Positions 5,402-53,900 of a stretch of 64,000 bases of DNA are shown in pieces. Made by a program: the position numbers and the translations under genes. The stretch is from Escherichia phage LF82-9. Location: sequence record PV660452, one strand, 5' to 3'. The notes beneath the pieces are model-generated. The model saw nothing but the letters and a program-made list of their open reading frames with translations. It was not told the origin of the DNA and searched no databases. Position 1 is the first letter of the stretch, and every line of letters begins with the position of its first letter.

Positions 5402-5942
5402 ATAAAAAATCCAAACTAGGCGAATCGCTAACAACTTCCTTCTTTTCAGCCCCAGGAGCTTTATAAGCGGATTCTTCATAATGCGTCATTTTATCGTAGA
5501 TGTCTTGAATAAACGTTTCATCTACCAACGCTACCATATCATCGTCATGACTGTCGTAGACATTATGAACGAAGTAACTATATTTCTTTGCAACTTCCTT
5601 ACGTTCTTTTTTGATACGTTGGACAAAAGCATTAAAACAAGCTCGAGTTATGTATGCATGTGGGTTATTGTACTTAGTTTCGTCGAAATTATGAAGTCCC
5701 TTAATAGAGGCTTCAATCCCATCTGCAATCATCTCCTGCTTCCAAGACTGGGTATATCCTGAAAAGTTGAAACGTTTGGACAGGCCTTCGGCGATAAGCA
5801 TAATTGCTAAACCGATGGTATCATTCTGACGAATAATTTTGTTTGGGTCTTTATTATTTAAGAGCTCCTTTTTCCACTCGATTATAGCGGCGAGAAGCTC
5901 TTTATTATTCACATAGTTATTTTTAGGTTTTTGTTCAGTCAT
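5385..5942 (-). CDS. 55: Late-transcription sigma factor gp55
   Basis: 185 aa from ATG at 5942 (SD AGAGG); sequence ...[23 protein letters not shown]...[39 protein letters not shown] matches T4 gp55 from memory. Confidence 0.9.
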
Positions 5943-5963
5943 AAGTACCTCTTGGCTCAATTC

Positions 5964-5996
5964 ATAGGTCTATTATATCATAATATTTAGAGACCT
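5964..5996 (-). promoter_or_regulatory. Stem-loop-embedded TATAAT element upstream of gene 55 (promoter-stem-loop cassette; -35 weak)
   Basis: 8-bp inverted repeat ATAGGTCT/AGACCTAT enclosing minus-strand TATAAT. Confidence 0.35.
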
Positions 5997-6014
5997 ATCT
6001 TAAAGCACGAGATA

Positions 6015-6284
6015 CTATCGGAGCAAACAATAAGCCTGGAATACTTTTTCCATTAAACGTTTGAACTCATGGATATCGATATAAAGCTCGGTTAATCCAG
6101 CTCCATAAAGAAAATCTAAAAAGTTCTCATGTGTTTCGTTATAGTCGCCTTCGTTTAATTGAGATACATGAGTTTCCCAAAAACCGACACCTTTAACAAA
6201 TGGAAAATACGTAACTTTCATAAAGTTGTCGACGTAAAATTCGCCCAGCTTTTCTTCAGTTATACTGATTCGAGTTAATTTCAT
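6015..6284 (-). CDS. Hypothetical protein (89 aa)
   Basis: ORF track; coupled 4-nt overlap with the upstream gene. Confidence 0.45.
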   Translation of the reverse strand: MKLTRISITEEKLGEFYVDNFMKVTYFPFVKGVGFWETHVSQLNEGDYNETHENFLDFLYGAGLTELYIDIHEFKRLMEKVFQAYCLLR

Positions 6285-6508
6285 TCTAGTTCCTTTGCTG
6301 CAAATAAGGCAGCATCCAATGAATCAAATTGGTCAACGAAATCAATATTCAACGCATCGTCAACCGTAGCATATAACCACCATTGTTTGAATTCGTATTC
6401 TAGAATAAATCCAGGACCTTCAATCTGAGGAAGACCTAGGCTATTTGTACCAACTTCGTAACCAGCTAGACGCAGGTCATTAATCAAAGTTTCTGTTAAT
6501 ACGCTCAT
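6281..6508 (-). CDS. Hypothetical acidic protein (75 aa)
   Basis: ORF track. Confidence 0.45.
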   Translation of the reverse strand: MSVLTETLINDLRLAGYEVGTNSLGLPQIEGPGFILEYEFKQWWLYATVDDALNIDFVDQFDSLDAALFAAKELE

Positions 6509-6868: not shown

Positions 6869-6905
6869 GAGAGCATTATACTCTGCTCTCAAGAGTTTGT
6901 GCGTT
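6869..6905 (-). promoter_or_regulatory. Promoter-stem-loop cassette (TATAAT inside 7-bp stem GAGAGCA/TGCTCTC); near-identical copy at 36955-36998
   Basis: Minus-strand TATAAT; 44-nt segment repeated with one mismatch 30 kb away. Confidence 0.45.
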
Positions 6906-7143
6906 ATTTCGTGATAAGATAATGTAAATAGTTTGCTTGACGAACACTGATATCAACACCCATATCAAAGATACCTTTATAGAACGGGTATTTGTTTTCA
7001 GTAGAATCTAGACTAAAAGCCTTTCCGCCACAACTAACGGTAATAGCATCAGTTAAAGTGTCATATACAAACTTAATAGTTGAGCCGTTCACTACAACTT
7101 CAAGACGTTTTTTCGATGTAATAATGTCTAATTCTTGTTCCAT
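6904..7143 (-). CDS. Hypothetical protein (79 aa)
   Basis: ORF track. Confidence 0.45.
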   Translation of the reverse strand: MEQELDIITSKKRLEVVVNGSTIKFVYDTLTDAITVSCGGKAFSLDSTENKYPFYKGIFDMGVDISVRQANYLHYLITK

Positions 7144-12157: not shown

Positions 12158-12583
12158 TTAACTTAAACGTCTTTCTAAATATTCAATGTATTCTGCGGCT
12201 GCTTGCATCAGGTTACCTTCATAGCCGTCGTTATTTTCTTGTCCAGCTAATTTAGCTAATGCATAAGAAATTCGTTCACCTTCGAATTCACCAAGTTTAC
12301 TACCTAGCACATCAGCAATATCAGCCGAATCAATTTCTTCGAGTTCATCTATTGAATGGGATTCCCAGAAGCACCAAAGAGAAGTATCACGGTCATAGAT
12401 GCAAAGTTTCTCACCTGTGTTCAACATCACTTCGATAATGCCATGGTCGCCATAACCATCTTCGGTAGTAGTACCAATTACCTTGAGGATTGTTCCTTTC
12501 TTTAATTCAGGAAACTTGACTTGTAGTTCTTCGTCTTCTTTAACAATCTTGAACCATTTACCGCGAGTTTCAGAAATATTCAT
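12158..12583 (-). CDS. Hypothetical protein (141 aa); positional candidate for pin (Lon protease inhibitor), not verified
   Basis: ORF track 12158..12721 trimmed to ATG MNISETRGKWF...; lies between 49 and nrdC as pin does in T4. Confidence 0.45.
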   Translation of the reverse strand: MNISETRGKWFKIVKEDEELQVKFPELKKGTILKVIGTTTEDGYGDHGIIEVMLNTGEKLCIYDRDTSLWCFWESHSIDELEEIDSADIADVLGSKLGEFEGERISYALAKLAGQENNDGYEGNLMQAAAEYIEYLERRLS

Positions 12584-12584
12584 A

Positions 12585-12755
12585 TCAATATTCTCTATAA
12601 AAGTTACGATGAGAACGTTTAGCTTTGCGAAGCTGACGTTTAGTAGGACGAACTGTAAATAGTTGTCCAGAGAAAAAATTCGAATCGGTTTTAATAAGCA
12701 AATACCAATCATGCTTGCCATTTTTTAATAAACGGTACAATAATTTAACTTGCAT
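12585..12755 (-). CDS. Hypothetical small basic protein (56 aa)
   Basis: ORF track 12585..12782 trimmed to ATG at 12755. Confidence 0.3.
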   Translation of the reverse strand: MQVKLLYRLLKNGKHDWYLLIKTDSNFFSGQLFTVRPTKRQLRKAKRSHRNFYREY

Positions 12756-12903
12756 AATAATCTCTTCCCATTTCCATATCAATTAATTCATTTATTGAAG
12801 GTTCATCATAACATGGTTCTTCGTCGTTGTAAACCGTTTCGACGTCTGGCTCGACAGTCTCCCATCGAGCAGAATACCACGGTTTAACCCCGGAGTTTAT
12901 TGA
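12745..12903 (-). CDS. Hypothetical small acidic protein (52 aa); below ORF-track cutoff
   Basis: Manual translation MKSSINSGVKPWYSARWETVEPDVETVYNDEEP... Confidence 0.3.
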   Translation of the reverse strand, partial: SINSGVKPWYSARWETVEPDVETVYNDEEPCYDEPSINELIDMEMGRDYYAS

Positions 12904-13219
12904 GCTCTTCATAATCAATCCAGGATTCTAGCCCTGACGGCAGGTCACATTCAATGTTCCACAGAAGCTCTTCAATGGCTTGCAGGCGATTATATTCTTC
13001 AACAGTAATAGTAACCATTGTTTCAGGCTTTTTAACCATCATGTCATTCATCAGAATGTACAGATCTTCACAAACAGCCGGGTCGTCCCATGTCCATATT
13101 TCAGCATCTCGAACCAATGAAGTCGGAATAGAATTTAAAACTTCAAGCTTAGTAGGAGCGTCAGGACCGAGAAGAGTTGCTACAAATTTATATGCTTTGG
13201 CGAAATCAATATCGTTCAT
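12884..13219 (-). CDS. Hypothetical acidic protein (111 aa)
   Basis: ORF track; start region duplicates the nrdC-end/next-gene junction sequence. Confidence 0.5.
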   Translation of the reverse strand: MNDIDFAKAYKFVATLLGPDAPTKLEVLNSIPTSLVRDAEIWTWDDPAVCEDLYILMNDMMVKKPETMVTITVEEYNRLQAIEELLWNIECDLPSGLESWIDYEELNKLRG

Positions 13220-13238
13220 TTAAAATATTCTCGCAGTT
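13216..13238. repeat. 23-bp direct repeat, copy 1 (TCATTTAAAATATTCTCGCAGTT)
   Basis: Exact match to 13530-13552; each copy spans a start codon and its leader. Confidence 0.8.
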
Positions 13239-13534
13239 TATTGTTCTACCCAGGCACAGGAAACTTCGAAATCAGGACCACCGTATTCCCAGTGATATTC
13301 ACCAACAGGAATCCAGTCACCGTGCTCGTTTTCTTCGTAGTCTTCAGGTTCAAGACCAACGAATCGCCATTGAACACCTATGATTCGATTACCCATTAAT
13401 ATACGAAATTCACCCCATGGATTATCGATAGCATATTGGATATCGTTCTTAGCACGAGAACACATTTCTTGATATAACAAAGCTTCTAATTCGCCCTGAT
13501 CATAAGGGCCCGGGAAAGTTAAATCAATACTCAT
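13238..13534 (-). CDS. Hypothetical protein (98 aa) bounded by 23-bp direct repeats
   Basis: ORF track; ATG overlaps the nrdC stop (ATGA); W/E/Y-rich. Confidence 0.5.
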   Translation of the reverse strand: MSIDLTFPGPYDQGELEALLYQEMCSRAKNDIQYAIDNPWGEFRILMGNRIIGVQWRFVGLEPEDYEENEHGDWIPVGEYHWEYGGPDFEVSCAWVEQ

Positions 13535-13552
13535 TTAAAATATTCTCGCAGT
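13530..13552. repeat. 23-bp direct repeat, copy 2 (overlaps the nrdC 3-prime end)
   Basis: Exact match to 13216-13238. Confidence 0.8.
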
Positions 13553-13794
13553 TGGTCAAATCCACCAATATGACTTCCATCAGGAGCAAATACTTGAGGC
13601 ATAGTCAATCCAACTTGTGATTCACGTCCTAGTTTATTCAGAAGCTCGTCAATTTTTTCTTCATCAAATACACCTTTCTCTGGCATAACATTAATGAATT
13701 CGAATGGCTGTTTCTTAACAGTCAGCAATCGTTTCGCATTATCACAATAAATGCATTTATGAATAGTAGAGTCATACCCGTACACTTTAAACAT
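13531..13794 (-). CDS. nrdC: Thioredoxin/glutaredoxin NrdC
   Basis: MFKVYGYDSTIHKCIYCDNAKRLL...MPQVFAPDGSHIGGFDQLREYFK matches T4 NrdC from memory; start set at the ATG giving 87 aa. Confidence 0.9.
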   Translation of the reverse strand: MFKVYGYDSTIHKCIYCDNAKRLLTVKKQPFEFINVMPEKGVFDEEKIDELLNKLGRESQVGLTMPQVFAPDGSHIGGFDQLREYFK

Positions 13795-14200
13795 TATTTT
13801 TCCTTTCATCGATTAAATATGCAATGCCAAATACAATACATGTAATAAAACCTGTGATACAGATAGAAACCAACAACACTGTACCAAAGAACCAAATCAA
13901 GTTATCTTTAGTAGTTTGTTTGATATCCATCTCACGAATTTCTATAGCTATCGTATCACCTTTATTCAGAAGCGTATAAAACGACGGTGATACACGCCTG
14001 TCAAAAACTCGTCCTTGCTCATCTTTATAGACTGCAATAAATTCTAATTTAGAATATTTTCCTGTAGATTGGCCTGAGATTAATTCCACTACCTCCACAG
14101 GAATTACTTTAGTTTCCATGTAAGTATTCTGACTGTTCCAAATGAATGGAATAACGGCAAAAACTAAAGCTGCGATAAAACAACGAAGGCTATATCTCAT
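13787..14200 (-). CDS. Hypothetical membrane protein (137 aa; N- and C-terminal hydrophobic segments)
   Basis: ORF track; hydrophobic stretches at both ends. Confidence 0.5.
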   Translation of the reverse strand: MRYSLRCFIAALVFAVIPFIWNSQNTYMETKVIPVEVVELISGQSTGKYSKLEFIAVYKDEQGRVFDRRVSPSFYTLLNKGDTIAIEIREMDIKQTTKDNLIWFFGTVLLVSICITGFITCIVFGIAYLIDERKNNV

Positions 14201-14505
14201 TATAATATTCTCTCAAATTTGTGGAAGCATTTACGGCATTTCAATTTCAAGTTATCAGTGGTCCAGTTAACCAGTTGGACTTGGATAGTTCCACATTCCG
14301 GGCATGGATGTTTTGCTGCTGATTTGGCAGCATTTTCACGTCGTTCAACCATTTTCATTATTTCGTTCCATGCTGGAGGAACGAACTCTTCTTCACCGTG
14401 GATTTTATCTCGCTGAACAAATTCAATCTTTGAACTATCGTCAATAAACTTAACCAAGCCATGATTAGTGCTCATATCAATATCCTCTAAAAGACGTAGT
14501 TTCAT
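14200..14505 (-). CDS. Hypothetical zinc-ribbon protein (101 aa)
   Basis: CPECG...CRKCFHKF four-cysteine motif at the C-terminus. Confidence 0.5.
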   Translation of the reverse strand: MKLRLLEDIDMSTNHGLVKFIDDSSKIEFVQRDKIHGEEEFVPPAWNEIMKMVERRENAAKSAAKHPCPECGTIQVQLVNWTTDNLKLKCRKCFHKFERIL

Positions 14506-15455
14506 TATAACACCTCAATGGCATTTCGTAAACCGTCCGCTTTCGCATTCAGAGCTTTTAACGATTTAGTCTGTTCTTTAATCTGGGCTTCGACTTCTTT
14601 CAGACGAGATTTGAGATATTCACGTTCTTCGCTCAAGTTGTCAACTTTTTCTACTTTAGGTTCTTTAATAGTCTTAAGTTTATACTCGTTAGGGTTCTTC
14701 AGCTTAATTCGGGTGCGAGAACTGTATAACATTGAACCGTTATCTTCGGATTCGTCGAACGTTTCAACAACATCCATAGTCTCTAACAATGTAATAAGTT
14801 TATAAGACAATGAACGAACGGTTTTGTTATGCTTATTAATTTCTTCAGCTTTCATGGTACCGAGATTACGTGAGTAGTAATAAGGAACCTGGATATCAAT
14901 TGATAATGATGCGTTACCATTACCGGTCGGTTTGAATACTGCAGTAACCCAATCTTTAACATGAACTTTATTTGTACGACCATCACCGCCCGTGAATAAT
15001 TTACGAGAATGTTTAAAAAGCATATTCACTTGGTTATTGAATTCACAAGCAAATTTATCAGCGAATTTAGTTTCAGGAATGGTAGATAACCAATCAGCCA
15101 AATGAGTCTTTTTAACATCATTAATAATAGTGAATTCAACCAAATCAGTTTTAGATGTCACAGATTTAATAAAGCTCGGTTTCATAAAGTTTTTAATGTT
15201 ATCGCGAGCTACAGTAGAAGATAATAAACGAGAACGTTTGAACCATTGAAGCAGTGTCCCTAATGAATGAGAATACGCATTCTGAGTATCTTTACAGATA
15301 TGATTTTCTTGACCTGTGTATGTACCAAAATCGCGAAGAATACCACTTACTACATCTCGGTGTGGAACATCAAATCCTAGTGCACCAACAGCGCGCTGGG
15401 CACGAACGTTAGCGATAAGACCGGCAAAGTATTCAATGTAATGTGAACGTGTCAT
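14505..15455 (-). CDS. Hypothetical protein with C-terminal coiled coil (316 aa); first of three similar-sized genes
   Basis: ORF track; C-terminal ~60 aa K/E/L heptad-like; own upstream promoter cassette. Confidence 0.6.
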   Translation of the reverse strand: MTRSHYIEYFAGLIANVRAQRAVGALGFDVPHRDVVSGILRDFGTYTGQENHICKDTQNAYSHSLGTLLQWFKRSRLLSSTVARDNIKNFMKPSFIKSVTSKTDLVEFTIINDVKKTHLADWLSTIPETKFADKFACEFNNQVNMLFKHSRKLFTGGDGRTNKVHVKDWVTAVFKPTGNGNASLSIDIQVPYYYSRNLGTMKAEEINKHNKTVRSLSYKLITLLETMDVVETFDESEDNGSMLYSSRTRIKLKNPNEYKLKTIKEPKVEKVDNLSEEREYLKSRLKEVEAQIKEQTKSLKALNAKADGLRNAIEVL

Positions 15456-15480
15456 AATATTTTCCTCTCGTTAAGATAGA

Positions 15481-15513
15481 TTTATTATACTCCAACCATC
15501 CTTGGTTGTAAAC
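15481..15513 (-). promoter_or_regulatory. Early-promoter cassette (TTTACA-N17-TATAAT with spacer hairpin); 30-bp exact repeat of 16501-16530
   Basis: Minus strand reads GTTTACAACCAAGGATGGTTGGAGTATAAT; CAACCA/TGGTTG inverted repeat. Confidence 0.6.
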
Positions 15514-15517
15514 CGTT

Positions 15518-16477
15518 TTATGATTTTAATGCATTCATTGCATTAAAAAGTTTAGAGTACTGCAACTGGAGATTCGTTACAACACTTTGAGCATCACGAA
15601 GCTTAGCTTGTGCTTTGTCAAGTTCAACGGACAGTTGGTCTGCAGTAGCCTTGATTTGGTTGTAATGATAATCTTCGGCCGGAAGAAGGTCATTAGAAAC
15701 ATTTAGTTTTACTGCCGACAGTTTGCACACATTTGGCAAACCTTTAAACATACCGGGTTGTGTCGGAGAATATGCGCTTAGAACCTCTGCATTACCGACT
15801 GGTGTTGCTGTAATATTGCCTTCAAACAATGCATTTTCCTTTTTAAGATTTTGATAGTATTCAGAGTCTTTGTGCCACCATGGCGCAGGAACCTTTTTAC
15901 CAATAGATACACGAGCCTGGATAGCGATATGGCCCTTATTCTTGATAGGGTCGATAATATTAAGCTCACGAGAATAAATTGCTTTAATTTGGTGAATATT
16001 ATCACCTAACACTTCCAACGCTTGGTGGAATACACGAGCAACGTTATCGTTCTTAGGTTTATATGTAAGAGTGAACTCGTTCTCACTGATAACCATGATT
16101 TCTAACTTATCGTAAGTATATTTCAAATGTTTCATGTTAATTGCTTGAGGACGAATACGAGAAGCAATGGCCATCAGATTGTTAAGGTTATTTCGGAACT
16201 GTTTAGCGAAATATTGTCCTTCACCGCCGATACAAAAATTACGAAGTTTCTGTTTGGCTAATAAACGGCTGAACTCACCATTTTTAATGAACTCTTTAAC
16301 GGGTGTGTTAGTAATGCATTCAAATTGAGTAAACATACGAGAATTAATCCCATAATATGAACAGATTTCCTCAATCTCTTCAGGAGTCTTTACAGGCATA
16401 CGGATAGGATTAGGTCCTGGAGTATATGCGTTCGAGGTAAATTCTTTGATAAGTTCTCTACGTGTAATAAAAGCCAT
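15518..16477 (-). CDS. Hypothetical protein with C-terminal coiled coil (319 aa); second of three
   Basis: ORF track; flanked by 30-bp direct repeats. Confidence 0.6.
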   Translation of the reverse strand: MAFITRRELIKEFTSNAYTPGPNPIRMPVKTPEEIEEICSYYGINSRMFTQFECITNTPVKEFIKNGEFSRLLAKQKLRNFCIGGEGQYFAKQFRNNLNNLMAIASRIRPQAINMKHLKYTYDKLEIMVISENEFTLTYKPKNDNVARVFHQALEVLGDNIHQIKAIYSRELNIIDPIKNKGHIAIQARVSIGKKVPAPWWHKDSEYYQNLKKENALFEGNITATPVGNAEVLSAYSPTQPGMFKGLPNVCKLSAVKLNVSNDLLPAEDYHYNQIKATADQLSVELDKAQAKLRDAQSVVTNLQLQYSKLFNAMNALKS

Positions 16478-16500
16478 TTTATATTCCTCATGTTGAAAAA

Positions 16501-16532
16501 TTTATTATACTCCAACCATCCTTGGTTGTACA
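16501..16532 (-). promoter_or_regulatory. Early-promoter cassette (TGTACA-N17-TATAAT); 30-bp exact repeat of 15481-15510
   Basis: Sequence identity with 15481-15510; sigma70-like spacing. Confidence 0.5.
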
Positions 16533-17528
16533 TCATTCCTTAAGAAGTTTTACTACTTGAATAAGATTAGCTCGTTCTGTTTTATTTTTACCGTTTAAGC
16601 CTGCTAATCGTGAGATTTCATCGTCAGTCTGTTGAATAGTTACATTAAGTTCGTTAATCAAAGCTTCAAAGTATTTGATTTGCTCAGCATGTTTTGATTC
16701 AAATTTCTGAACCGGAATAACGTCTTGGTTCAGTCCATCAATAAGGTCTTTAAGAGCATCTTCTTGGTTGATATCATATTCAACTTCCTTTATTTCTTCA
16801 ACGAGCTCGTCTTTATATCTAACGTCTTTTAGTCCTGGTGCTGGTCCTGAAATCTCTTCTTTAAGAGTACAAACATACCCAATACGGTATCCAATGCCGT
16901 CTCGCTTGATATCAACTTCGTCGATAAATCCACAATGTTTAAGTCCAGAGCCGATTATGTCAAAATATCCTTGACGACGTCCTTCAAACGTTACACGAAC
17001 TACTAAGACAGTTTTGCCACCGACCTTTTGAAGCTCACATTTATAAAAGTCCGTTGAACCTGAATAACGTGGATGAGTTTTAAAGTTCATCTGACGATCT
17101 AGGCCCATTTGTAAACGTGCTGTTACGGCCATAAAACGTGTTTGGTTCTCGTTAAGATGAGCAACAATCCATTTCAAAGGCATTTTACACTGTTCACGAC
17201 CGAACAAATCAGTACGTCCTAGATTACGCAGGATGTTGTTAGAGTTAATCATCGACAGAACGTTAAGTTTATTCAACGCGCTGAAGATTCCGTCAGCCAT
17301 TGATTTTCCATAACCTTTACACGCTTTAATAAGTGCTCGCGGCAGATTAGTATAGATTTCAGACGGCATATGAAAATCAAATTTACTAGTCAGTAATTGA
17401 TGAACTTGGATAGCAATTTGCTCATAATTAAGTGCTCTGCGATCGTTATGGTCTTTAAACCACACTTTAATCTGTGAAGCACATAAACCGTTAATTTCAT
17501 GTTTTACCGCATCAGATGTAATGCTCAT
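16533..17528 (-). CDS. Hypothetical protein with C-terminal coiled coil (331 aa); third of three
   Basis: ORF track; C-terminal heptad-like region. Confidence 0.6.
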   Translation of the reverse strand: MSITSDAVKHEINGLCASQIKVWFKDHNDRRALNYEQIAIQVHQLLTSKFDFHMPSEIYTNLPRALIKACKGYGKSMADGIFSALNKLNVLSMINSNNILRNLGRTDLFGREQCKMPLKWIVAHLNENQTRFMAVTARLQMGLDRQMNFKTHPRYSGSTDFYKCELQKVGGKTVLVVRVTFEGRRQGYFDIIGSGLKHCGFIDEVDIKRDGIGYRIGYVCTLKEEISGPAPGLKDVRYKDELVEEIKEVEYDINQEDALKDLIDGLNQDVIPVQKFESKHAEQIKYFEALINELNVTIQQTDDEISRLAGLNGKNKTERANLIQVVKLLKE

Positions 17529-17563
17529 AACTATTTCCTCAGATTGAATTGGAACTCAAAACC

Positions 17564-17590
17564 ATTATAACCCGTCCTTGGGTAAAGCGT
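17564..17590 (-). promoter_or_regulatory. Candidate middle-type promoter (MotA-box-like GCTTTA ~13 nt upstream of TATAAT)
   Basis: Minus strand AAACGCTTTACCCAAGGACGGGTTATAAT; spacing matches T4 middle promoters, box has one mismatch to TGCTT. Confidence 0.3.
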
Positions 17591-18118
17591 TTATGCGTGA
17601 ACCGTCTTTAAACGTTCTTCAAATTTCCGAAGAGTACTAATACGTTCTGCTTTCTGTTTTGTATAGTTTGCAATACGTTCTGAAGTGAGAGCGTATCGTT
17701 CGTTTACTGTTTCTTTCATGAAGTCAGGGATTTCACGAGAAGCTTTAATTTCATCAAACTTGTCGAGTACTGCCTGGTCTTCAGCGATTAAATTTTCGTA
17801 CATCTCGATATCTTTCTTGATAAACTCGATATCTTCCTGGGTTACTTTGGATAAACGAGACGCTTTATCCTTTTTGTACTGCTCGTTAGTTTCACGAGAC
17901 CAGAATAATGTACGTTTTTTGTTAGTGTTTTTGTAGACTTCCACAATTCCAACTGAATCGATGATAACAATCCAATTCCAGCGAGATTTGAAAATCTGAC
18001 CTCCGTCCACGGTAATCTCGTTATCATAAGCAACGTCATTAAAGAACTTGCTCTGTGCTTCAGATTTAAATTTACCGTCGTTATAATTTACCAGGTTGAA
18101 AATATCTTTAGCGTTCAT
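17591..18118 (-). CDS. Hypothetical protein (175 aa)
   Basis: ORF track; promoter cassette upstream. Confidence 0.5.
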   Translation of the reverse strand: MNAKDIFNLVNYNDGKFKSEAQSKFFNDVAYDNEITVDGGQIFKSRWNWIVIIDSVGIVEVYKNTNKKRTLFWSRETNEQYKKDKASRLSKVTQEDIEFIKKDIEMYENLIAEDQAVLDKFDEIKASREIPDFMKETVNERYALTSERIANYTKQKAERISTLRKFEERLKTVHA

Positions 18119-18145
18119 GTTTTACCTCCAGTAGTTGATAGGTCT

Positions 18146-18174
18146 ATAATAACACAACCATAGACCTTGTAAAC
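18146..18174 (-). promoter_or_regulatory. Early promoter with stem-loop (GTTTAC-N17-TATTAT; AGGTCTAT/ATAGACCT stem)
   Basis: Minus strand GTTTACAAGGTCTATGGTTGTGTTATTATAGACCTATCAAC. Confidence 0.6.
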
Positions 18175-18176
18175 AA

Positions 18177-18464
18177 CTAAAAGAAACTTTTTTCAGTATT
18201 TTTTCCACTGAACCAAACCGACTTCGGGGTTTTCTGTAACTTTTCAGATTTAAGTTTCTCTTCCTGTTCTTTCTTATATACACTCTTGTCGTACTGGAGC
18301 ATCTCTATGGCATTCTTTTGCAAACGATCTAAGGTAATTAAGGCTTTAGTTTTTCCTTTCAAGGAAGAGTCCTGGCGAACCTCCTCGCTATATTGCATTG
18401 TAGAACTAACCATACGATGAGCATAGAGTTCGACTGCGGCTTTAATTTTTTGCATAAAATCCAT
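18177..18464 (-). CDS. Hypothetical protein (95 aa), K/E-rich
   Basis: ATG at 18464 with SD AGAGGA. Confidence 0.5.
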   Translation of the reverse strand: MDFMQKIKAAVELYAHRMVSSTMQYSEEVRQDSSLKGKTKALITLDRLQKNAIEMLQYDKSVYKKEQEEKLKSEKLQKTPKSVWFSGKNTEKSFF

Positions 18465-19583: not shown

Positions 19584-19622
19584 TTTATTCTCCAAATTTA
19601 CTCATTTCGTTTTGATAGGTCT

Positions 19623-19651
19623 ATAATAACATATCCTAAAAACATGTACAC
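19623..19651 (-). promoter_or_regulatory. Candidate early promoter (GTGTAC-N17-TATTAT)
   Basis: Sigma70-like spacing upstream of the ATPase gene; degenerate -35. Confidence 0.4.
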
Positions 19652-19679
19652 TACTTTTTAAAAATATTTTGACCCCCTA

Positions 19680-37258: not shown

Positions 37259-37287
37259 CTATAACATAAACGTACTTAGATGTAAAT
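37259..37287 (-). promoter_or_regulatory. Early promoter (TTTACA-N17-TATAGT)
   Basis: Minus strand TTTACATCTAAGTACGTTTATGTTATAGT. Confidence 0.5.
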
Positions 37288-37441
37288 TATTTCAACGTCA
37301 CCTTTAGCGGCTTTATAACCTTCAGCCCAAGATACAACAGAGTTTTTATCTGAGGATTCAAATTCAGGCATTGGACTTTCACCAATATTCACACAGTATG
37401 TTTCTTCATTTTCATCGAACCAAATAATTAAAGTAGTCATT
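37277..37441 (-). CDS. Hypothetical small protein (54 aa); below ORF-track cutoff
   Basis: Manual translation MTTLIIWFDENEETYCVNIGESPMPEFESSDKNSVVSW... Confidence 0.35.
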
Positions 37442-37470
37442 TTGTTTACTCCTTTGTAGTTGATAAGTCT

Positions 37471-37499
37471 ATAGTATCACCATCCTTGGTGCTTGTACA
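37471..37499 (-). promoter_or_regulatory. Early promoter (TGTACA-N17-TACTAT)
   Basis: Minus strand TGTACAAGCACCAAGGATGGTGATACTATAGACTTATC. Confidence 0.45.
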
Positions 37500-37502
37500 C
37501 AA

Positions 37503-50902: not shown

Positions 50903-53900
50903 CAGTAAAAGCGCCAGCAGTCACGAGTCTCAGATTATCTAAATTGTCCGCAAACCAAGTTCAAATTCGCTGGGATGAGGTTGGCGCTAATTTCTACTAT
51001 TTTGTGGAAATAGCTGAGACCAAAACAGCTAACGGGGAAGCAATTCCCCGTAATAGCTATAGATGGACTAATTTAGGATATACCGCTGATAACAATTTCT
51101 TTGAGTCTGGTTTAAATTCATTAACAACATATATGATGCGTGTGGCTACAGCAGCGGAGGGATTTGAGCAGTCTGATTGGAGATACACCGAAGAGTTTGA
51201 AACATTTGAAATAAACGCTTACACATTCCAACATATGATTGAAATGCAATTAGCTAACGAGTTTATTTCTGAAAAATTTACAAAAAATAATACAAACTAC
51301 GTTGATTTTAATAATGACACGATCATGGCAGCACTGATGAGCGAGTCGTTCCAATTTAGTCCTGCATACACCGATGTGTCATCGATTAGAAATTTTATAA
51401 TTGGTGAAAATCAGTATCATGAAATCCAGGGGCATATCCAGGATGTATGTAAAGATATAAATCGAGTATATCTAATGGAATCTGAAGGAATTCTTTACCT
51501 TTTTGAAAGATTCCAACCTATTGTAAAAGTGTCTAATGATAAAGGCCAAACATGGAAAGCGGTTAAATTGCTTAATGACCGTGTAGGATATCCACTTTCA
51601 CGAACCGTATATTACCAATCAGAATATACGACGTATTTGCTCGGCTATGATAAGATTTTTTACGGGCGTAAATCATCCGATATTCGTTGGTCTGCTGATG
51701 ATGTTCGTTTCAGTTCACAAGACGTAACATTTGCTAAAATCGGGGACCAATTAAATTTAGGTTTTGATGTAGAGATTTTCGGTACATACGCGTCATTGCC
51801 AGGAAACGTATCACGTATTGCAGAAGCTATTACTTGTAATGATGACTATGTTTATATTGCGGCCAGAGATAAAGTTCGCTTCGTTAAAACCAGTAACGCT
51901 CCTATTGATTCAGATCCATTATCTCCGACCTATTCCGAACGGTTGTTTGAACCTGAGATGTTTACAATAACAGGCAACCCTAAAGCAGTTTGTTATAAAA
52001 TGGATTCTGTTGGTGGAAGAATATTCGCTCTTATTATTGGTGAAGTCGAAAACGTTAATGACGACCCAAGAACAAAGCCTATTTTGGATTCTGTTGATAA
52101 AGGTGTATACGTTTTAGACCATGACGCTGGAACATTTAAAAGGATATTTGGTAATACTGAAGAAGAACGCCGTCGTATAGAACCGGCTTTCACCAATATG
52201 TCTACTGACGGTGTTGAGCTTTATATCTCTTCTAGTAATTTTAAATTTTTAGAATCTGATATTGTTGACGACCCGGAAACGCAATCTAAGTATGGACTTT
52301 TAGGAGCGGTTAAGTATGAATATCCTAGAGAATGGCTCGCAGATAAACATTACCATATGATGATTTTCGCATCAAACGAAGAAAGTAATTGGGAAACTTT
52401 TTCACCAACTCCTATGCAGTATTATGCAGAACCTTTCTTTAGTTATTCTAGAAAATCAGGCACACGTTCTTGGATTAATAACTCTGATAGAGCGGTAGTG
52501 ATTTATTCTGATTTGCTTTACACAAAGGTAGTGGAAAGCTACCCTAGCACTTCACCTGATCGTAAAGTTCACGAATACTGGAATGATGGCGATTGTAAGA
52601 TTGTTATGCCGAATATAGAATTCACTGGATTTAAAAAATACGCGTCTGGTATGTTGTTTTATAAATCATCAGGTGAAATAATTTCATATTATGATTTTAG
52701 TTATCGTGTTAGAGATAACGTTTCTATAATTTGGAAGCCCACTAACGTATTTTTGACCGCCTCATTACAAAACCAAGAAAAAGAAACTTCTTGGGTTCCT
52801 GTTGAAGAGACAGGTCTAGCTGACCCGGATTTACGCCCATTACTCACTACAATGATGCCAGAGTCTTATCTGTTGGATAATACAAACTTTGAAGCATTTT
52901 GTGAAGCGTATATTCAATATCTTTCTGATGGATATGGGACTCATTATAATAACTTATTGAATTTGATTAAAAATAAATACCCGCGAGAAGAACACGCATG
53001 GGAATATCTTTGGTCTGAAATTTATAAACGGAACATTTATTTGAATGCTGAGAAACGTGATTTAGTTTCTAGGTTCTTTGAGTCCAGAAGTTATGATTTT
53101 TATTCTACTAAAGGAACTGAAGCATCGTATAAGTTTTTGTTTAAAGTTCTTTATAACGAAGACGTTGAAGTAGAAATCGAGTCATCTGCTGGAACAGAGT
53201 ATGATATCATAATTCAATCTGATTCTATAAGTGAAGATTTGGTTGGACAAACTATATACACCGCTACAGGTAGATGTAATGTTACATATTTAGAAAGAAG
53301 CTATTCTAAAGGTAAATTACAATGGACTGTGACTATTCATAACCTTTTAGGTAGGCTTTTAGTCGGTCAAGAAGTAAAAGCCGAAAGACTAGCAGATTTT
53401 GAAGGTGAAATAGTTCGCGGTATTAAAGGTAAAGAACTTGCCCAAAACACTATCGATTATTTTAATCGTGGTAGAGCTTATTACGTCATGAAAATAAAGT
53501 CAAATCTTCCATCCTCTCGTTGGAAATCTGACGTACTACGTTTTGTACATCCGGTAGGATTTGGATTTATTGCAATAACCTTATTAACAATGTTTATTAA
53601 TACAGGATTAACGCTTAAACATGTTGAAACTATTATTAATAAATATAAAAATTATAAGTGGGATTCCGGACTGCCTACGGAATATGCAGACCGCGTCGCT
53701 CGTTTAGACCCTCAAGGTAATGTAGAATTCAATCCTGTTACAGGTGAAGTAATTTATGATGCTGGTCCTTATGCCGGTATCGAATACCCTTTACCTGCAA
53801 ATTATAATGAAGAAAATGATAACTCTATTTTCCAAGGACAATTACCGTCCGAACGACGCAAGCCGATGAGCCCATTATTTGATGCATCAGGTACAACGTT

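Follow-up and report, generated by a model that had tools for sequence, protein, structure and literature searches.

Tandem, probably paralogous nrdC.3, nrdC.5, and nrdC.6 genes of an RB69-like phage lie behind promoter-hairpin cassettes and may form an antidefense-type array

RESULTS

Three nrdC genes in a T-even accessory region

Escherichia phage LF82-9 (record PV660452; the window analyzed here is a stretch of 64,000 nt) carries three consecutive genes of about 320 codons, here called genes A, B, and C, which the RB69 reference record names nrdC.3, nrdC.5, and nrdC.6 (Table 1). The initial annotation had delineated them as three minus-strand open reading frames (ORFs) of 316, 319, and 331 aa, in exact agreement with the ORF list. 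We favor, with some reservation, the reading that they form an array of paralogous antidefense-type genes placed behind promoter-hairpin cassettes that also act in gene exchange. The 3.7-kb stretch that holds them matches Escherichia phage LF82-1 and sibling phages at 100% DNA identity and numerous phages of the genus Mosigvirus (RB69-like T-even phages) at 97 to 99%, which identifies the source of the window, by DNA identity, as a member of that group. The array is flanked by nrdC.2 and nrdC.8 within an accessory region that runs from the endonuclease VII gene (gp49) and pin through nrdC.11. At the same position, T4 has four genes, nrdC.3, nrdC.4, nrdC.5, and nrdC.6, encoding 308, 333, 340, and 275 aa, respectively. 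The families are restricted to enterobacterial T-even genera.

Table 1. Genes and promoter cassettes of the nrdC.3/5/6 array (positions in the window)
Feature	Position	Strand	Basis	Families or elements	Predicted transcription start
Gene A, nrdC.3 homologue, 316 aa	14505..15455	-	ORF; phrog_1435, E 1e-101	phrog_1435 / PF26897	
Cassette 1, PeSL-like, 5' of nrdC.3	15476..15518	-	Repeat, promoter sites, stem covariation	-35 TTTACA 15512-15507; hairpin CAACCA-AGGA-TGGTTG 15508-15493; GGAG; -10 TATAAT 15489-15484	near 15477
Gene B, RB69-type nrdC.5, 319 aa	15518..16477	-	ORF; full-length Pfam DUF7235	phrog_2351 / PF23882	
Cassette 2, 5' of nrdC.5	16496..16538	-	Repeat, promoter sites, hairpin	-35 TGTACA 16532-16527; hairpin 16528-16513; -10 TATAAT 16509-16504	near 16497
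Gene C, nrdC.6 homologue, 331 aa	16533..17528	-	ORF; phrog_2257, E 5e-127	phrog_2257 / PF26899	
Cassette 3, PmSL-like, 5' of nrdC.6	17556..17594	-	MotA box rule; T4 PnrdC.7 orthology	MotA-like box AAACGCTTTA 17592-17583 (overlaps the nrdC.8 stop codon); hairpin ACCC-AAGGAC-GGGT 17583-17570; -10 TATAAT 17569-17564	near 17557

Gene B belongs to the family of the T4 anti-Dsr1 protein NrdC.5

Gene B matches the DUF7235 profile (PF23882) with 399.2 bits (E 1.8e-119; profile positions 1 to 307 of 307; curated cutoff, 30 bits), and T4 NrdC.5 (UniProt P39256) matches it over its full length with 420.6 bits (E 5e-126). By BLASTP, the two proteins share 25.6% identity over 308 aa (E 1e-10). When expressed alone, T4 nrdC.5 restored infection on dsr1-carrying cells, an activity shown against ECOR17 Dsr1 (Srikant et al., eLife 2022, PMC9391042). 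Dsr1 is a SIR2-type NAD+-depleting defense, and major capsid proteins have been reported as what its sensor recognizes. By sequence, gene B is a diverged member of the T4 NrdC.5 (anti-Dsr1) family. It resembles T4 NrdC.5 in its full-length DUF7235 match, position in the array, architecture, C-terminal helix, and conserved motifs, whereas some 40 residues of insertions specific to T4 are missing from it and its N terminus carries an extension of its own. Moreover, gene B has its own early promoter cassette, while T4 nrdC.5 directly follows nrdC.6 without one. The RB69-type nrdC.5 is carried by 133 phage records.

Neither gene A nor gene C matched PF23882. Gene A is 91.5% identical to RB69 nrdC.3 and 56% identical to T4 nrdC.3; gene C is 97.9% identical to RB69 nrdC.6 and about 33% identical to T4-type nrdC.6. 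An exhaustive HMMER profile search of 1.84 billion proteins showed the nrdC.6 family to be narrow, with 6 clusters at 50% identity and no diversity added beyond these. The T4 reference nrdC.6 (AF158101.6, positions 5567 to 6394 of our locus L003) encodes 275 aa with a divergent C terminus; the nrdC.6 proteins of other T4-type phages and of another T4 record have 295 aa and align through the C-terminal helix, and tblastn breaks the reference gene into two pieces. These features point to a frameshift in the sequence or the strain used as reference.

Profile comparisons connect the families

Pairwise BLASTP among A, B, and C found no similarity, and PHROGs and Pfam place the three proteins in separate families. 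We therefore turned the arrays of T4, RB69, JS98-type phages, VR7, P8, LYE-01, ESCO47, and several metagenomic T-even contigs into one alignment per family and compared the resulting profiles by hhalign, with permuted-column and reversed controls. Since coiled coils can inflate scores, the comparisons were rerun without the C-terminal helices. The nrdC.3 and nrdC.4 profiles matched with a probability of 97.6% (E 3e-12), or 97.9% without the helices. Those of nrdC.4 and nrdC.5 matched with 84.7% (E 6.6e-6) over 257 columns, i.e., along the whole length, and with 86.9% without the helices, the score then being 46.8 versus 13.3 ± 2.1 (maximum, 19.7) for column-permuted profiles. A merged nrdC.3/4/5 profile aligned to nrdC.6 with 82.6 to 90.2% (E 1e-5 to 1.5e-6) over 212 to 246 colinear columns. 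The profiles thus identify nrdC.3, nrdC.4, and nrdC.5 as paralogues with good confidence, and nrdC.6 is probably a further paralogue, its link being the weakest of the profile links. The distant paralogy at which the initial annotation had hinted is accordingly backed by profile-profile comparison, although pairwise BLAST is blind to it.

Two motifs lie in register in all three proteins: motif 1, LS..N...ILRN, reads WFKRSRLLSSTVARDNIKNF in A, FIKNGEFSRLLAKQKLRNF in B, and ALNKLNVLSMINSNNILRNL in C, and motif 2, N.NQ...[LM]A..ARL..G, reads CEFNNQVNMLFKHSRKLFTGGD in A (residues 137 to 158), QFRNNLNNLMAIASRIRP in B, and HLNENQTRFMAVTARLQMGLD in C. Among the short shared motifs listed earlier, those of B (NLMAIASRIRPQ) and C (RFMAVTARLQMG) are equivalent and correspond to motif 2, but the segment chosen in A (residues 9 to 22) was in the wrong place, its equivalent being residues 137 to 158. 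An H-x-x-Q-I-K sequence at the start of the C-terminal helix is common to B and C, and an L-x-x-A/V-x-x-L-K-like tail closes all families. A joint MAFFT alignment of the three families misplaced motif 1 and was not used as a search profile. Word-indexed homologue searches with A, B, and C returned close relatives only, and IMG/VR yielded only 8 loci.

A shared predicted order of structural elements with a C-terminal heptad helix

Gene A is laid out as a helical N-terminal part, a small alpha/beta unit, a variable linker, and a C-terminal heptad helix (about residues 270 to 316), and gene C as a helical N-terminal part, a beta-beta-alpha-beta-beta unit, a variable linker (about 220 to 252), and C-terminal helices. 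The low-confidence models of B and C present the same order of elements: several helices at the N terminus; a long helix that bears motif 2; a stretch of two or three strands, one helix, and two more strands; the linker; and the C-terminal helix. The linker, long and unstructured in both models, is the most variable part among close homologues.

A home-made and crude heptad score, compared with shuffled sequences, peaks at the C terminus of each of the three proteins and lies above the 95th percentile of the shuffles in each. The spans are about 270 to 316 in A (narrowed by hand from a script span of 203 to 316), 267 to 319 in B, and 278 to 310 in C. AlphaFold predicts a single continuous helix in B (266 to 318) and an interrupted one in C (253 to 294, 302 to 311, and 316 to 330), broken by a Gly/Asn stretch. 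Coiled-coil tails of about 60 aa had been proposed for the three proteins; the score supports their presence in all of them, but the length is closer to 45 to 55 aa and the tail of C is broken.

Promoter-hairpin cassettes precede nrdC.3 and nrdC.5

The exact direct repeat noted upstream of two of the genes exists, but measures 31 nt (15480-15510 and 16500-16530) rather than 30, the coordinates quoted before lying within it. It occurs twice in the window versus 0 times expected (100 shuffles) and, at 88% identity, can be followed over 43 nt. The sigma70-like promoters attributed to both copies are indeed the best of the region, with TTTACA-N17-TATAAT (11/12) before nrdC.3 and TGTACA-N17-TATAAT (10/12) before nrdC.5. 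Since shuffled sequences contain no fewer promoter-like hits in total than the region, the scan proves nothing alone; what supports the promoters is conservation and the literature. The -35 element of cassette 2 abuts the nrdC.6 stop codon (16533-16535), and a GAGG-type Shine-Dalgarno sequence precedes the ATG in the cassettes of nrdC.3 and nrdC.5.

The same cassette design, with other stem sequences, is found 5' of nrdC.3 or nrdC.4 in T4, JS98, VR7, LYE-01, and ESCO47. Across 13 cassette variants, 88.5% of the stem cells are paired versus 63% in shuffles, 4 of the 6 pairs show compensatory changes, and slid controls reach at most 0.156 versus 0.585. Because stem pairing covaries and the slid controls collapse, the covariation indicates that the hairpin is under selection as a structure. 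A role of the hairpin as a terminator is doubtful, since it folds weakly (-6.9 kcal/mol for the RNA hairpin of cassette 1) and no U-run follows; the cassettes also gave no terminator-like call.

This design is of the PeSL type, a kind of cassette of T4-like phages (Arbiol 2010, PMC2839356; Comeau 2014, PMC4122927) with the T4/PST consensus TTTACW-N17-TAYWAT, from which cassette 2 departs by one -35 deviation (TGTACA). Like PeSLs, the cassettes combine a sigma70-like T4/PST early promoter, a short stem-loop, a Shine-Dalgarno sequence, and a start codon, and they are repeated between accessory genes of a hyperplastic region, at indel breakpoints. Unlike described PeSLs, their hairpin has an invariant AGGA loop and a CA/TG closing core, is weak, and has no terminator-like U-run.

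Some further observations concern these cassettes. A GGAG sequence lies between the hairpin and the -10 element (15490-15493 and 16510-16513, minus strand), as it also does in the T4 nrdC.3, JS98, VR7, and ESCO47 cassettes. GGAG is the target of the RegB endoribonuclease, and putative read-through transcripts may be cut there. A fourth AGGA-loop cassette (37463-37502, minus strand; TGTACA, CACCA-AGGA-TGGTG, TACTAT) stands upstream of a 54-aa ORF (37276-37440) and is the only copy outside the nrdC array, as judged by a CAAGGA[TC]G core with a -10-like hexamer. A different repeated cassette of 59 nt (73% identity) lies upstream of nrdC.8 and nrdC.10 (18135-18193 and 19612-19670), with a GTTTAC -35 element and a longer hairpin (AGGTCTAT...ATAGACCT) enclosing the -10 element.

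A middle-type cassette precedes nrdC.6

For the third gene, the initial annotation had considered a possibly MotA-type promoter, and cassette 3 bears this out. MotA boxes follow the rule (a/t)(a/t)(a/t)TGCTTtA, located 12 ± 1 bp from a TAtaaT -10 element; cassette 3, AAACGCTTTA-N13-TATAAT, fits this rule with one mismatch (T to C) and an intact central GCTT. T4 PnrdC.7 is a mapped MotA-dependent middle promoter (Truncaite et al. 2003, listed in Hinton 2010, PMC2988021); its start, at 53325, is found 7 nt past the -10 element of the T4 cassette upstream of nrdC.7. Both have a CGCTTTA box, a hairpin, and TATAAT, with a spacer of 13 nt in cassette 3 and 12 in T4. By these likenesses, cassette 3 is a MotA-type middle promoter orthologous to T4 PnrdC.7, comparable to PmSL, the MotA-box version of PeSL.

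T4 PnrdC.7 drives nrdC.7 and then nrdC.6 and nrdC.5, whereas its orthologue in the window would drive nrdC.6 directly. The nrdC.7 homologue (13787-14200), a predicted membrane protein 42% identical to that of T4, adjoins nrdC here and in RB69; T4 nrdC.7 is placed between nrdC.8 and nrdC.6. Since nrdC.7 has been relocated next to nrdC, the MotA-type promoter would drive nrdC.6 in this phage. T4 omics data place nrdC.3, nrdC.4, and nrdC.6 in the early class at both the RNA and the protein level; nrdC.5 counts as early by its mRNA but as middle by its protein. These early mRNAs, together with the MotA-type assignment of cassette 3, support prereplicative expression. The proposal of paralogues under separate early promoters agrees with the early-type cassettes 1 and 2, but not with the third promoter, which is of the middle type.

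Presence and absence of single genes, with a junction inside the repeat in ESCO47

Gene content differs among T-even arrays: T4 has nrdC.3,.4,.5, and.6; the RB69 type has.3,.5, and.6; VR7, JS98, and P8 have.4,.5, and.6; and the ESCO47 type has.3 and.6. In the Mosigvirus ESCO47, nrdC.5 is absent and nrdC.3 comes directly after nrdC.6. The left flank of this junction corresponds to cassette 2 and the right flank to cassette 1, with the switch within the shared repeat (one variant aligned). A junction-spanning query found the contiguous nrdC.6-nrdC.3 junction in 21 records (ESCO47 and 20 others).

The Tequatrovirus LYE-01 lacks nrdC.4, with a crossover within the initial codons, which are homologous between nrdC.4 and nrdC.3. 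The gene in its nrdC.3 position (positions 6881 to 6975 of our locus L013) begins with the T4 nrdC.4 cassette and the first nrdC.4 codons (ATGACTCGTAA) and continues as nrdC.3, so that by its sequence it is a natural nrdC.4/nrdC.3 chimera from which nrdC.4 was deleted. As the junction lies in homologous codons, it provides independent evidence that nrdC.4 and nrdC.3 are related.

Neighboring genes and annotation

The accessory region also contains metabolic genes (nrdC, nrdD, and tk) and inhibitor genes, namely, pin, encoding a Lon inhibitor, and, in T6, gp49.2, which neighbors the nrdC array and encodes an inhibitor of the OLD defense. In the window, the stretch between pin and nrdC (12158-13534) showed no T4/T6 gp49.2 homologue; an unrelated 111-aa ORF (12884-13219) fills the area. 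An exact 23-nt direct repeat (13216-13238 and 13531-13553, 315 nt apart), which reads AACTGCGAGAATATTTTAAATGA on the minus strand and comprises the final nrdC codons and an overlapping ATG, brackets a 49.3-like ORF (13238-13534). Judging from this arrangement, the ORF and its repeat look like another short-repeat-bounded single-gene indel unit. On the other side of the array, nrdC.8 (17591-18118; 175 aa; 83% identical to T4) has a heptad-scoring C-terminal helix (residues 146 to 175); down-regulation of T4 nrdC.8 has been reported in DRT1-expressing cells.

Many GenBank records (e.g., phage ATK47) label the entire nrdC.1-nrdC.11 block "thioredoxin." The nrdC.3, nrdC.5, and nrdC.6 proteins of the window have no thioredoxin match in Pfam, and the label is an annotation artifact, the name having been carried over from the adjacent nrdC; it is best ignored by users of these phages for therapy. 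A "StbAB binding site" inside the nrdC.6 gene of ATK47 is an 11-nt annotation without support that looks like an artifact, and we disregarded it.

DISCUSSION

The three genes are best described as fast-evolving, probably related accessory genes of the early and middle periods, which fits counterdefense. Identity to T4 is 56% for nrdC.3, 26% for nrdC.5, and 29% for nrdC.6, versus 77 to 90% for the flanking gp49, nrdC, nrdC.8, nrdC.10, and nrdC.11, and a T4 deletion of nrdC.1-6 is viable. The array had been likened to an antidefense arsenal. This stands for the family of the middle gene (DUF7235, with T4 NrdC.5 acting against Dsr1), while for nrdC.3 and nrdC.6 we infer such roles. As a whole, the picture of paralogous antidefense-type nrdC.3, nrdC.5, and nrdC.6 genes behind promoter-hairpin cassettes that also act in gene exchange appears to us reasonably likely.

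Several observations weigh against this picture. In the literature searched, we found no experimental data on nrdC.3, nrdC.4, or nrdC.6. With an identity of just about 26% between gene B and T4 NrdC.5, the two proteins may differ in target specificity. A, B, C, and T4 NrdC.5 were also compared with the PDB by sequence and by profile, which returned nothing relevant and no solved structure. The AlphaFold2 models reach pLDDT values of only 40.8 for B (18 sequences, all ≥84% identical) and 48.1 for C (5 sequences) and are too poor for assigning a fold or judging whether the proteins share one; a Foldseek search of BFVD with the low-confidence C model returned only sequence-driven nrdC.6 relatives with TM scores of ≤0.26, which is uninterpretable. 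Without the coiled coil, the probability of the match between the merged profile and nrdC.6 drops to 19 to 50%. As for the cassettes, their hairpins fold weakly, at -4.9 to -6.9 kcal/mol, and have no U-tract, and the stem-loop lies within the -35/-10 spacer, overlapping the last two -35 bases, whereas described PeSLs carry it upstream of -35. From their sequence, we regard the cassettes as a positional variant of described PeSLs.

The genes could instead encode real early proteins with another dispensable role in host takeover or housekeeping (nucleoid, membrane, or metabolism), only T4-type NrdC.5 touching defense. Three of the four paralogue families come without an experimental phenotype, PADLOC returned nothing meaningful on the array proteins, the PDB gave no match, Pfam beyond DUF7235 gave only subthreshold coiled-coil noise, and metabolic genes share the region. 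However, the only tested member is an antidefense protein, the genes can be dispensed with on laboratory hosts, they change much faster than the genes around them and are present in some close relatives but not in others, and other inhibitors (pin and gp49.2) are encoded nearby. We therefore consider this alternative rather unlikely, although it deserves to be kept in mind.

A second alternative concerns nrdC.6, whose size, position, and coiled-coil likeness might be convergent or compositional rather than inherited with nrdC.3, nrdC.4, and nrdC.5. Single family profiles match nrdC.6 with hhalign probabilities of <2%, the merged profile loses much of its probability once the coiled coil is removed, and PHROGs and Pfam keep the family separate. 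Nevertheless, without the coiled coil the merged profile still scores 30.6 to 36.0, far above 100 column-permuted controls (12.7 ± 2.5; maximum, 21.0) and the reversed control (14.4), and the full match is colinear over more than 200 columns. Motifs 1 and 2 in register, the H..QIK sequence at the start of the coiled coil, the LLK-type C terminus, the predicted order of secondary-structure elements, and synteny are all shared with nrdC.6. An independent origin of nrdC.6 thus seems quite improbable.

That the 31-bp repeat merely represents two copies of a strong promoter conserved for expression, its tie to gene gain and loss being incidental, is very doubtful: T4 early promoters are strongly conserved beyond their hexamers and the cassette sequence is conserved across genera, but the ESCO47 switch falls within the shared repeat and 21 records have the same contiguous junction, PeSL-mediated deletion has been shown experimentally in RB49/phi1 (cited in the PeSL literature), and the stem covaries while the promoter hexamers are fixed, which argues for selection on more than recognition by RNA polymerase.

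Under the antidefense reading, nrdC.3, nrdC.4, nrdC.5, and nrdC.6 would constitute one probably paralogous, T-even-restricted family of prereplicative proteins of roughly 300 aa. Their common plan would comprise a helical N-terminal region with two motifs, a beta-beta-alpha-beta-beta unit, a hypervariable and probably disordered linker, and a C-terminal heptad helix that closes with a common L-x-N-A-x-x-x-L-K-like tail. The nrdC.3, nrdC.5, and nrdC.6 products would most likely be stoichiometric inhibitors of host immune proteins, the globular part binding the host immune target and the C-terminal helix oligomerizing the inhibitor. Gene B may act on Dsr1-like proteins, while nrdC.3 and nrdC.6 may have diverged toward other host targets. 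Each cassette would give its gene its own early or middle transcription, and the repeated cassettes would also serve as crossover points at which homologous recombination inserts or deletes single genes, so that the arsenal would vary among related phages.

Such an array resembles the T4 dmd-tifA-adfA antitoxin island, DSAD1 (against DSR2), and T6 gp49.2 (against OLD), which are likewise small or mid-sized, clustered, dispensable, and variable accessory early proteins. These act as inhibitors of single host immune proteins, and the nrdC array may have the same role. It differs from them in having no sequence relationship to any of them and in consisting of tandem probable paralogues instead of unrelated genes. 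One may go further and view nrdC.3, nrdC.4, nrdC.5, and nrdC.6 as a single modular inhibitor scaffold, diversified by T-even phages against a whole class of host immune sensors, with the AGGA-loop cassettes as a dedicated integron-like swap system between coinfecting phages. The paralogues might then, for instance, occupy the capsid-protein-binding sensor common to Dsr1 and Avs7-type proteins, or different SIR2/STAND effectors. We regard this extension as speculative and unlikely.

Since the genes have been named and catalogued and the repeat is of the PeSL kind, little is new at this level, and one of the families already has a published counterdefense member. What our analysis adds is profile-level evidence for nrdC.3 to nrdC.6 as one paralogous group, a covarying AGGA-loop hairpin within the promoter spacer, and a presence/absence polymorphism of nrdC.5 with its junction in the repeat in the aligned variant. 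The array offers a clean natural case in which a repeated promoter cassette marks the gain and loss of single genes, and it extends the support for the PeSL shuffling model to a further T-even genus. If nrdC.3 to nrdC.6 are one family, they would provide three ready candidates for new counterdefense proteins as well as a natural series of variants, such as the RB69-type and T4-type NrdC.5 proteins with their low mutual identity, for mapping the parts that determine target specificity.

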